NCBI GenBank assembly: GCA_964245815.1 | Contig: CAXTNX010000007.1 | Coordinates: 1,787 to 65,786 of the forward strand | From: an uncultured Sphingomonadaceae bacterium | GTDB taxonomy: Bacteria > Pseudomonadota > Alphaproteobacteria > Sphingomonadales > Sphingomonadaceae | Reading direction: 5' to 3' | Length of the DNA stretch: 64,000 nt | In this document: positions 7,068 through 12,911 of the stretch, one piece after another | How positions within the stretch are numbered: position 1 is the stretch's first letter | How the letters are laid out: each line of letters opens with the position of its first letter | The notes under the pieces: model-generated | What the model saw: the letters and a program-made list of their open reading frames with translations, nothing else | What the model was told of the DNA's origin: nothing | Databases searched by the model: none | Program-made: the position numbers and the translations under genes

Positions 7068-8258
<1,191 letters not shown>

Positions 8259-8332: not shown

Positions 8333-10408
<2,076 letters not shown>

Positions 10409-10453
10409 GGCGGTGGTCCTTTGAACTTGGGTTACGTTGAGGCTGCCCAAAGG

Positions 10454-10732
10454 CTAGCCAATAAGGAACTTCGCGAGGCCGGCACCTGCCCCGATGAGCG
10501 CAGCACCGGCGATCAGACCTTGTGCCAGGAGCAACCAGGGAGAGAGGGTTTTATCCCGCTCCAGCGTATAGCGTTCGGCTTCCAGCTTGTACCGCTCAGC
10601 CGAAAGCTTGTGCTCCTCTGCGTTCAGTTTGGAGGCCTCCGCCCTCAGCTTGCGCGCCTCGGCTTCAAGTTTCGCGGAATCGCGGTTCAATCGATGGATG
10701 TCATCTTCCGATGGATCAGCCGCCGTCGCCAT
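10454..10732 (-). CDS. Small coiled-coil protein with C-terminal transmembrane helix, inserted in the str operon
   Basis: 92-aa ORF with GGGAG RBS; about 6 heptads xKLxAEx; hydrophobic C-terminus PWLLLAQGLIAGAALIGAGAGLAKFLIG; more A/T third positions than neighbouring genes. Confidence 0.8.
   Translation of the reverse strand: MATAADPSEDDIHRLNRDSAKLEAEARKLRAEASKLNAEEHKLSAERYKLEAERYTLERDKTLSPWLLLAQGLIAGAALIGAGAGLAKFLIG
10552..10677. repeat. Degenerate 21-bp tandem repeat (about 6 units) encoding the heptads
   Basis: Units translate to AKLEAEA/RKLRAEA/SKLNAEE/HKLSAER/YKLEAER/YTLERDK. Confidence 0.7.
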
Positions 10733-10760
10733 TCAGCACTCCCTGGAGCTATATAAGCGA

Positions 10761-11231
10761 CTACCAGCGGTAATGCGAGAAGGCGCGATTGGCCTCGGCC
10801 ATGCGGTGCGTGTCCTCGCGCTTCTTCACCGCGTTGCCGCGATTGTTGGCCGCGTCCATCAACTCGGCGGAGAGCCGCGCGTCCATCGTGTGCTCGGAGC
10901 GGCCACGCGCCGCGGTGATGAGCCATCGGATCGCGAGCGCCTGGCTGCGCTCGGGACGGACCTCGACCGGCACCTGGTAGGTCGCGCCGCCGACGCGGCG
11001 GCTGCGTACCTCGATACCCGGACGGACATTGGCGAGCGCATCGTGGAAGATCTGGAGCGGATCGCGCTTGGCGCGGCTCTCGATCGTCTCGAGCGCGGAA
11101 TAGATGATCCCTTCCGCGACCGACTTCTTGCCGTCGAACATGACGGAGTTCATGAACTTGGACAGCACGATATCGCCGAACTTGGGGTCGGGCAGGATCT
11201 CGCGCTTCTCGGGACGACGACGACGGGACAT
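10761..11231 (-). CDS. rpsG: 30S ribosomal protein S7
   Basis: [30 protein letters not shown]. Confidence 0.99.
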
Positions 11232-11272
11232 TGACTGAAACCTTTCAAACCAGCGGGATCACGGGCGGCCCT

Positions 11273-11297
11273 GGATCCCGGCCTTCGCCGGGATGAG
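11273..11297 (-). repeat. REP-like palindrome in the rpsL-rpsG spacer
   Basis: CTCATCCCGGCGAAGGCCGGGATCC with stem ATCCCGGC/GCCGGGAT; 20/25 identical to the element at 32228. Confidence 0.65.
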
Positions 11298-11311
11298 CGG
11301 GCTGCACCCGG

Positions 11312-11683
11312 TCACTTCGGACGCTTGGCGCCGTATTTGGAGCGGGACTGGCGGCGATCCTTGACCCCCTGCGTGTCGAGCACGCCGCGCAGCACGTGGT
11401 AGCGCACGCCCGGCAGATCGCGGACGCGGCCACCGCGGATCAGCACCACCGAATGCTCCTGGAGGTTGTGGCCCTCGCCCGGGATATAGCTGATGACCTC
11501 GCGCTGGTTGGTCAGGCGGACCTTGGCGACCTTGCGCAGTGCCGAGTTGGGCTTCTTCGGCGTCGTCGTGTAGACGCGCGTGCAGACGCCGCGCTTCTGC
11601 GGGTTCTGCTCCATCGCAGGGACCTTGGACTTGGCCTTCTGCGGATCGCGGCCCTTGCGGACCAGCTGGTTGATCGTCGGCAT
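11312..11683 (-). CDS. rpsL: 30S ribosomal protein S12
   Basis: Start [10 protein letters not shown] at 11683; [21 protein letters not shown]. Confidence 0.99.
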
Positions 11684-11873
11684 TGAAGCCTTCACCTTTC
11701 AGATGGTTACTTTGCCGGGCTCAGGCCGCATGCGAATGCAGACGAGGCTCATGCAAGTCCGACAAGGACCTGCCCGAGCCTCCCCAAGCGTCGGCAATGT
11801 TCAATCGGCCCGGGGGAACTCCCCTCAGGCAGGCGCGGCCTATAGCGGCGCTCTCGCAAGGGGTCAACCGACC

Positions 11874-12911
11874 CTAGAGCGCGCCGGACAGCACCTGGAT
11901 GAGCGCCACCTGGAATCGCGCCGGGTCCTCGATCTGCGGGACATGGCCGAGACCGGTCAGCGGCACGAAGCGCGCATCCTTCATCCGCGCCGCCGCCCTG
12001 TCGCCGACGGTGCCGGCGTCGGCGACGTGATCGGCAACCTCGGGCGCCCAGGTCCGGCCGAACACGTTGCGATCCAGCGTCCCGACCATCAGCACGGTCG
12101 GTACCGTGACGCGATTGAGCTCGTAGGCGACCGGCTGGGTCTCGAGCATCTCGGTGGTGCGCGCCTGCGCGTCGATCACCGCGGCGCGACCCGGCCCGGC
12201 ATAGAGCCCGCCCATCATGTCGATCCACCGGTCATATGATCGGTGCCAGACGCCGTGATAATAGTTGGCGAGCTGATACGCCTTCATCGATGCCGGCGTG
12301 CGCTGCTCCTCGAGCGCGGTCAGCCGGTCGATATCGGCATAGGGCACGCCCTGCGCCAGCCGGTCGACCAGCGACAGCGGGTTGATGAGCACGAGCTGAT
12401 CGACCAGCTGCGGGGTCGAGATCGCCATCCGCAGCGCCAGCGTACCGCCGAACGAGTGGCCGACCAGCGTCGCCCTGATGACGCCGCGCGAGCGCAGCAG
12501 CGCCTCGGTCAGCCGGGCGAGACCGAGCAGCGAATACTGGAAGCCCGCGGGCTTGGACGATTTGCAGAAACCGATCTGGTCGGGGACGATCACCCGGTAT
12601 CCGGCGGCCGCCAGCACGCGCGCGGTATCGCCCCAGGTCGCGCCGCAGAAGTTCTTGCCGTGGAGCAGCACGACGGTGCGCCCGTTGGCATGCGCCGGCG
12701 CCAGTTCCATATAGGCCATGTCGACGGCCCGCCCCTGCGCGACGGTATGGAAGAGGCGCACCGGGAAGGGATAATCGAAGCCCTCGAGCTGCGCCCCATA
12801 GCTGATGCGGGCCGGCGCCGGCATCGCACCCACCTGAGGCGCCGCCGTCTGCGCCGTCGCGATCCAGCCGGTCGGCAGCGTGGCGAGAGCGAGCAAGGCG
12901 GTCCGTCGCAT
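11874..12911 (-). CDS. Secreted alpha/beta-fold hydrolase
   Basis: Signal-like N-terminus; LLHGKNFCG oxyanion region; GHSFGG nucleophile elbow; GHVPQ His motif. Confidence 0.88.
   Translation of the reverse strand: MRRTALLALATLPTGWIATAQTAAPQVGAMPAPARISYGAQLEGFDYPFPVRLFHTVAQGRAVDMAYMELAPAHANGRTVVLLHGKNFCGATWGDTARVLAAAGYRVIVPDQIGFCKSSKPAGFQYSLLGLARLTEALLRSRGVIRATLVGHSFGGTLALRMAISTPQLVDQLVLINPLSLVDRLAQGVPYADIDRLTALEEQRTPASMKAYQLANYYHGVWHRSYDRWIDMMGGLYAGPGRAAVIDAQARTTEMLETQPVAYELNRVTVPTVLMVGTLDRNVFGRTWAPEVADHVADAGTVGDRAAARMKDARFVPLTGLGHVPQIEDPARFQVALIQVLSGAL

Follow-up and report, generated by a model that had tools for sequence, protein, structure and literature searches.

A predicted tail-anchored microprotein gene of a phage-shared family in the str operon of Sphingomonadaceae

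Why does a small gene lie between rpsG and fusA, inside the str operon, in an uncultured Sphingomonadaceae bacterium? The 64,000-nucleotide (nt) stretch analysed here, referred to as the window (assembly GCA_964245815.1, contig CAXTNX010000007.1, positions 1,787 to 65,786 of the forward strand), carries a 92-codon open reading frame (ORF) with an ATG start between these two genes, all on the same strand (−). An earlier note, made from the letters of this DNA alone, had read the ORF as a horizontally acquired membrane microprotein gene with a possible role in phage defence. Our analysis points to a different history: the ORF probably encodes a selected, tail-anchored microprotein of a phage-shared family that has long been held in the str operon.

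Coding status and architecture of the microprotein

The gene occupies positions 10454..10732 (−), with its stop codon at 10454-10456, and is predicted from substitution rates, hydropathy and AlphaFold2 modelling to encode a tail-anchored helical microprotein of 92 amino acids (aa), MATAADPSEDDIHRLNRDSAKLEAEARKLRAEASKLNAEEHKLSAERYKLEAERYTLERDKTLSPWLLLAQGLIAGAALIGAGAGLAKFLIG. A first search returned 47 homologues of 64-113 aa and 51-81% identity, all unnamed or labelled "hypothetical". Across 12 orthologue pairs, the ratio of nonsynonymous to synonymous substitution rates (dN/dS) ranged from 0.04 to 0.32, with saturated dS (above 1), and the length differences among aligned homologues were all in frame. 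These comparisons indicate that the ORF is a genuine protein-coding gene under purifying selection.

Three parts can be distinguished in the protein. An N-terminal head (residues 1-19, MATAADPSEDDIHRLNRDS; 10676..10732, −), whose M-A-T (M1, A2, T3) is at least 90% conserved in family alignments, is followed by six heptads of the form xKLxAEx (residues 20-61; 10550..10675, −), a predicted cytoplasmic amphipathic helix whose unit number varies among homologues. The third part, assigned by hydropathy and conservation, comprises a Ser64-Pro65-Trp66 hinge and a C-terminal transmembrane (TM) helix (residues 66-92, WLLLAQGLIAGAALIGAGAGLAKFLIG; 10457..10543, −).

The heptads read, in order, AKLEAEA, RKLRAEA, SKLNAEE, HKLSAER, YKLEAER and YTLERDK. 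Residue identity at a lag of seven was 0.60, a value reached in 0 of 20000 shuffles, and DNA identity at a lag of 21 was 0.56, against about 0.25 at other lags. TRF reported no DNA tandem array; the repeats therefore appear to be old, diverged and kept at the protein level, not a fresh DNA tandem array. Each unit contributes one Leu, one Ala and a Lys(i)-Glu(i+4) pair, a pattern that fits either a weak leucine zipper or a stable single helix.

Hydropathy analysis placed the sole hydrophobic segment between Trp66 and the last residue, the N-terminus being acidic and polar. AlphaFold2, given 85 homologues as input, predicted one helix spanning residues 9-91 (mean pLDDT 84), with a dip around Ser-Pro-Trp. 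Within the TM segment lie Gln71, a GAGA motif of small residues and, four residues before the C-terminus, Lys88; Pro65, Gln71, Gly81, Ala82 and Lys88 are each at least 90% conserved, and Trp66 is found in "type 1" TM forms. With an amphipathic helix of ~50 residues, a single predicted TM within the last ~30 residues and no N-terminal signal sequence, the modelled protein has the architecture of a C-tail-anchored membrane protein whose N-terminus is predicted to be cytoplasmic. This layout agrees with the earlier note, which had counted about six heptad units followed by SPW and one TM helix. Foldseek against BFVD and a profile search of PDB sequences returned only meaningless single-helix or coiled-coil matches.

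Searches of Pfam and NCBIfam likewise gave only coiled-coil matches far below the curated cut-offs (APG6_N, DivIC, FtsL, MreC, SMC, SH3_and_anchor), and the family is, by these searches, unannotated, with no Pfam or NCBIfam model. Some relatives carry the JGI annotations FtsB, ZapB or DUF3084. Proteins of the FtsB/FtsL/DivIC type do resemble the window protein in having a leucine-zipper-like helix beside a single TM, but their order is the opposite, with the TM first and a periplasmic coiled coil after it; an identity of this type was rejected, the matches being compositional and far below the curated cut-offs.

Residence at the rpsG-fusA junction and phage relatives

Homologues of 70-113 aa were found at the same rpsG-fusA site in every locus checked, across at least seven GTDB genera of Sphingomonadaceae, with protein identity falling to ~30-50%. 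All six homologues located by exact sequence (Sphingomonas sp. Leaf412, M6A6_1c, PAMC 26605, S. adhaesiva and two metagenome-assembled genomes, MAGs) sit in the order rpsL-rpsG-X-fusA, where X is the microprotein gene; one of the two MAG homologues, from a member of the Sphingomonadaceae, is 51% identical. Of 401 genomes of the bacterial family searched by profile, 15 gave matches, in 8 of 112 genera, and nine loci fetched from six further genera again held the gene at the junction.

Within the window's GTDB genus (22 species, 15 readable junctions), the gene is present at five junctions, encoding 92, 90, 78, 70 and 70 aa in rpsG-fusA gaps of 286-352 nt. The remaining 10 junctions are empty, measuring 87-188 nt with hairpins or an insert resembling a repetitive extragenic palindrome (REP), and no gene remnant was apparent by eye in any of them. 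A maximum-likelihood tree of the flanks (rpsG and the start of fusA) requires two changes to account for presence and absence within the genus, in two well-supported clades; we read both as losses, since the basal branches and the outgroup genus include carriers. Taken as phylogenetic evidence, this distribution indicates that the gene is an old resident of the junction and not a recent capture. The earlier note had proposed to survey the junction for variable cargo, and such cargo did not appear: 40 further junctions of the bacterial family (22-220 nt) contained no comparable cargo gene, and the site is therefore not a general landing pad. Presence was polymorphic within five genera among this 40-junction sample.

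The empty junctions have features of their own. In six of them (L020, L021, L023, L025, L026, L034), two conserved hairpins, GACTCGAAAGAGTC and CGTCGGGG...CCCCGAC, stand just before the fusA ribosome-binding site; both are absent where the microprotein gene is present, and they may represent an alternative RNA element between the cistrons. Among the empty junctions, the longer ones (178-188 nt; L024/G001, L030/G014, L089/G130) contain an apparent inverted repeat resembling a REP or a miniature inverted-repeat transposable element (MITE), ...GCCCTGAGCTTGTCGAAGGGC..., with the translation "ALSLSKG"; independent insertions of one element family seem to have occurred at the junction.

Length and module composition vary widely among the resident genes. 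Homologue lengths cluster at 77/78, 82, 85, 89 and 92 aa, values spaced 3, 4 or 7 residues apart; the 92-aa and 85-aa forms differ by exactly one heptad, and the helix extends from ~2 to 8 heptads in the wider superfamily. Insertions and deletions of 7 aa between species thus bear out the variable repeat number that had been anticipated. Two N-terminal types (LNRxSARLEAE... and DFEEQRVRI...) and two TM types (SPWLLLAQGLIAGAAL...LIG and PRSMIFQAMLATAALLGAGAAIAKLFFP) occur in all four combinations, represented by 36, 10, 16 and 46 sequences.

Carriers of the "long" type do not form one clade on the flank tree (approximately unbiased test, p = 9e-38), a group that was named after the tree had been seen. 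On the same tree, the flanks of the window gene group as sister to the flanks from a genome whose own gene is of 70 aa and type 2; the window gene is nonetheless 71-76% identical to the Leaf412 and M6A6 genes. From these patterns we infer intragenic recombination together with allele replacement through the conserved flanks. Identities of ungapped flank blocks did not show recombination tracts, the comparison with Leaf412 and M6A6 being disturbed by an indel in fusA.

Off-site paralogues also exist, among them 63-aa forms adjoining purA in one genus. This 63-aa subfamily (…RFVPWHFLVGGITAG…AAIVKIFF) lies downstream of or near purA (L049 1438-1629, +; L051 1498-1689, −), and one genome (G169) has both a purA-side 63-aa copy and a junction copy.

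Beyond Sphingomonadaceae, profile searches revealed a large superfamily. At least 483 clusters at 90% identity were recovered as near relatives, and an exhaustive search of 1.84 billion representative proteins yielded 943 clusters at E ≤1e-3 and 121 at E ≤1e-10, the wider superfamily amounting to ~940 clusters at 50% identity. Among the best 150 superfamily matches listed, nearly all are 60-130 aa long, with the match reaching the C-terminus. Named members include "hypothetical proteins" of Methylobacterium, Methylorubrum and Xanthobacter, and one Methylobacterium member is a standalone chromosomal gene.

The same superfamily extends to phages. In PHROGs, which has no curated cut-off, the window protein matched phrog_6330 with E = 9.6e-6 (27 bits) and the 70-aa junction form with 1.8e-6, more distant alphaproteobacterial relatives, retrieved with the family profile, scored up to 2e-12, and prophage and viral members gave E values of 2e-12 to 8e-12. 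One distant alphaproteobacterial relative lies in a prophage beside terminase and antirepressor genes. A 62-aa protein adjoining the integrase of an IMG/VR contig scored an hhalign probability of 98.4% against the family profile, and an alignment of six phage and prophage members scored 98.1% against the junction family (E = 1e-13). These profile comparisons argue that the junction family is homologous to small temperate phage and prophage proteins (phrog_6330, phrog_9071); the association with phage or mobile DNA that the earlier note had put forward was right at the superfamily level. A search of viral contigs with a single prophage protein found none.

Members of phrog_6330 and phrog_9071, exemplified by Bordetella phage vB_BaM-IFTN8 gp34, Serratia phage vB_SspM_BZS1 p26 and Paracoccus phage vB_PkoS_Pkon1 p72, have the same layout as the junction family: an AExxKL heptad helix, then Pro or Trp-Tyr-Pro ahead of the TM, whose C-terminal end reads ...AKLFx. 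They differ in size and setting: the phage members have 54-69 aa and 2-4 heptads, whereas the window protein has 92 aa and six heptads and would be a str operon cistron.

In the three phages just named, in the IMG/VR contig and in two alphaproteobacterial prophages, a small same-strand gene lies directly downstream, overlapping by 4 nt in two cases. The downstream neighbour is annotated as an XRE regulator in three phage records, and that of the terminase-adjacent prophage matches the helix-turn-helix (HTH) model HTH_3 above the Pfam cut-off (4.6e-7). For the IMG/VR contig and the Bordetella phage, Pfam gave only sub-threshold HTH matches to the neighbour, and the neighbours in the Xanthobacter prophage and Burkholderia phage vB_SBP33 had no HTH match. 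The pairs adjoin integrase, lysis or O-acetylase genes, which are accessory ("moron") positions, and have the look of an uncharacterised cassette of two accessory genes. No XRE partner accompanies the window gene; fusA comes next, and phage genes are not nearby. A literature search found no description of the Sphingomonas rpsG-fusA gene or of the phage module.

In four temperate phage loci, the pair is oriented against the neighbouring late genes (L071 3480-3877; L075 3001-3461; L061 3980-4471; L070 3489-3972). The downstream gene is annotated XRE in three of these four pairs, and the L075 neighbour has no HTH match.

Operon setting and codon usage

The genes around the ORF, all on the − strand, are those of the str operon. 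The first is rpsL (ribosomal protein S12; 11312..11683), identified by its translation MPTINQLV... and by Pfam Ribosom_S12_S23 on syntenic orthologues, followed by rpsG (ribosomal protein S7; 10761..11231), which encodes 156 aa with 88-94% identity to genus orthologues. Beyond the microprotein gene lie fusA (elongation factor G, EF-G; 8333..10408), with its own AAGGA ribosome-binding site, and tuf (EF-Tu; 7068..8258), a 396-aa ORF whose position is occupied by EF-Tu Pfam domains in orthologous loci. A second str operon insertion, a DUF2231 membrane-protein gene between fusA and tuf, was observed in a Sphingomonadaceae MAG (L011 / L012 6541-7275).

The 28-nt spacer between the rpsG stop and the ORF start (10733..10760, −) holds a conserved TTATATAG motif and a GGGAG Shine-Dalgarno sequence (10739-10743), 6 nt ahead of the ATG. 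The 45-nt spacer between the ORF and fusA (10409..10453, −) holds the fusA Shine-Dalgarno sequence AAGGA (10417-10421); it contains no detected terminator and folds no better than shuffled sequence. In orthologues, the upstream spacer mostly measures 22-32 nt (range 14-59), usually with a GGAG/GAGG-like element ahead of the ATG, and the downstream spacer measures 42-56 nt. Consensus scans found neither terminator-like sites in 10200-12000 nor promoter-like sites between rpsG and the ORF, and no Rfam family matched at the locus.

Because the ORF has its own ribosome-binding site, with no terminator or promoter detected around it, the simplest reading is that it forms one cistron of a five-gene transcript, rpsL-rpsG-X-fusA-tuf, and the microprotein gene is very probably co-transcribed with the str operon. 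The earlier description of a 92-aa gene with its own ribosome-binding site and no terminator between rpsG and fusA thus holds at 10454-10732. As a separate observation, most occupied junctions of the genus and several empty ones have (C)TTATATAG or CTATAT after the rpsG stop (window 10746-10760, −), a short motif that may represent a −10-like element or belong to a conserved RNA feature.

Codon usage sets the gene apart from its neighbours. Its GC content at third codon positions (GC3) is 0.677, against 0.88 for rpsG, 0.91 for rpsL and 0.93 for both fusA and tuf, in agreement with the more A/T-rich third positions noticed by eye before; 50 putative genes of the window average 0.873 (sd 0.052). 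When the amino acids were kept and codons were re-drawn from the neighbours' usage, the expected GC3 was 0.92 with translation genes as the reference (z = −9.8) and 0.88 with 27 other genes as the reference (z = −6.4). In 14 of 16 orthologues, too, GC3 is lower than in the flanking genes, the difference being typically 0.05-0.25; the lowering is therefore widespread in the family and does not mark a recent import here. The rare codons of the gene would argue against very high translation.

Proposed history, role and competing explanations

The history that we consider probable begins with a member of the phage-shared family that would have lost its XRE regulator partner and then become fixed between rpsG and fusA in the ancestor of a clade of Sphingomonas-like genera. 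Since fixation, the gene would have been kept by selection, lost repeatedly and reshuffled, both by gain or loss of heptad sequence in 3-, 4- or 7-aa steps and by swaps of N-terminal and TM modules, with homologous recombination through the highly conserved flanks as the probable route. In the cell, the tail anchor would direct the protein to the inner membrane and leave the helix in the cytoplasm. The Gln- and small-residue-containing TM may mediate self-association or docking onto a membrane partner, the heptad helix may serve as a zipper or a spacer, with heptad indels adjusting its length, and riding the str operon would give expression in step with growth.

Several points weigh against this history and the role attached to it. 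The phage link is seen only at the profile level, where coiled-coil and TM composition may inflate the scores; tblastn returned nothing for the window protein in plasmid records or for the 70-aa form in phage records. Recombination could also account for the patchy presence through repeated gains, and it may have affected the flank tree as well. The persistently low GC3 could stem from ongoing exchange with a lower-GC pool or from selection for slow or low translation. Transcription and translation of the ORF are themselves predictions. Any functional reading draws on where the relatives sit in phage genomes and on how the protein is built, and PADLOC returned 0 families at E ≤1 for the four family members tested.

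With regard to function, we tentatively propose, by analogy with its phage relatives, a domesticated prophage accessory function at the inner membrane, such as keeping out incoming phage DNA or modulating a membrane complex. Lactococcal Sie2009 is a superinfection-exclusion membrane protein from the lysogeny module of a temperate phage. Proteins of this kind are likewise small membrane proteins located beside integrase or repressor genes and expressed from the prophage, but the resemblance is positional only and concerns the phage relatives, not the str operon copy. The defence role raised in the earlier note finds no direct support; PADLOC gave no match. Some other small-protein regulatory role is also conceivable, at a similarly low level of confidence.

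A translation-linked role is less likely still, although it would explain the place of the gene between S7 and EF-G. In this scenario, a tail-anchored factor like YqjD, ElaB and YgaM would dimerise through its TM and tether or silence ribosomes or EF-G at the membrane. These Escherichia coli proteins are C-tail-anchored and helical, with a conserved Pro-Trp beside a Gly-rich dimerising TM, and their N-terminus blocks the ribosomal tunnel exit (bioRxiv 10.1101/2024.08.16.608256). The window protein shares with them (DUF883) the tail anchor, a largely helical body, a Pro then Trp hinge by a Gly/Ala-rich, small-residue TM, and a length of ~90-100 aa. Operon context also favours the idea, and DUF883 was absent above the cut-off from all 22 genus genomes, so that the niche could be open.

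Sequence comparison speaks against this scenario. No Pfam DUF883 match was found at E ≤10, and hhalign against YqjD/ElaB/YgaM gave a probability of 0.7%; DUF883 membership was rejected. DUF883 proteins end in Arg-Arg or Arg-Lys, whereas the window family ends in ...AKFLIG or ...AKLFFP, and heptad repeats are a feature of the window protein, which is without the DUF883 N- and C-terminal domains. DUF883 proteins inactivate ribosomes; the window protein is linked to translation by operon context only. Timing also differs: YqjD-type factors work in stationary phase and the str operon in the growth phase. The relatives occur as accessory genes of prophages or stand alone in unrelated surroundings, and frequent loss would be unusual for a translation factor.

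As a side observation, the Pfam DUF883 N-terminal model gave no match at E ≤1e-5 in 151 sampled Alphaproteobacteria. The YqjD/ElaB family has been described as conserved across proteobacteria; either Alphaproteobacteria largely lack DUF883, or their members are too divergent for the model.

The domesticated prophage membrane protein that we propose might exclude phages at the inner membrane in step with growth, or it might link the translation machinery to the membrane as an analogue of YqjD/ElaB that is not homologous to them, with heptad number setting the reach of its cytoplasmic arm; we offer this specific form as a conjecture.

The two-gene organisation of the phage relatives raises another possibility, namely that the gene derives from a small membrane toxin or abortive-infection effector paired with an XRE antitoxin or repressor and is here orphaned. 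An XRE-type HTH gene follows most of the phage members examined, and the 4-nt overlap in two of them is an arrangement common in toxin-antitoxin pairs. An unneutralised membrane toxin, however, would not be tolerable in a constitutive growth operon over such an evolutionary span. PADLOC, again, gave no match, and purifying selection extends over the whole length, including the long soluble helix, unlike in typical type I toxins of 30-50 aa. We therefore regard a toxin origin of this kind as doubtful.

Recent acquisition, as the view of the earlier note may be put, would mean that this strain or species gained a foreign gene in its str operon which hitch-hikes on the expression of that operon. 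The GC3 of 0.677 against an expected 0.88-0.92, the 10 empty junctions among 15 in the genus and the homology to prophage genes are all compatible with it. The same site in at least seven GTDB genera, the divergence to ~30-50% identity with dS above 1, the mere two presence/absence changes on the flank tree and the low GC3 of most orthologues stand against it. Nor were phage genes, mobility genes, border repeats or att-like features found at the window junction; of the hallmarks of a recent islet, atypical composition is present, whereas relatives carry the gene at the same site and the borders have no mobility features. The earlier note had named conservation at the site with host-like GC3 as the outcome that would refute its proposal, and the site proved conserved, whereas GC3 is not host-like. 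Judged by synteny, recent capture appears already largely refuted, and we consider it very improbable.

That the ORF makes no functional protein, having arisen by chance in a GC-rich spacer or serving as an upstream ORF that adjusts fusA expression simply by being translated, might be suggested by its shortness, atypical codon usage and lack of database annotation, but is scarcely credible given a dN/dS far below 1, conservation of the Pro, Gln, Lys and small-residue motif across hundreds of divergent sequences, homologues away from fusA, and a fusA ribosome-binding site of its own, 42-56 nt downstream.

The order rpsL-rpsG-fusA-tuf is among the most conserved gene orders of bacteria, and a selected membrane microprotein gene inside it, across several genera, is unusual. 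The unannotated superfamily to which this gene appears to belong links alphaproteobacterial chromosomal genes to accessory genes of temperate phages, and provides an accessible system in which to study how phage genes become domesticated and how coiled coils change in length through heptad indels. Should the protein touch ribosomes or block phage entry, it would be a new, sequence-unrelated example of either class; if it does neither, it would still be a well-defined, uncharacterised small membrane protein.

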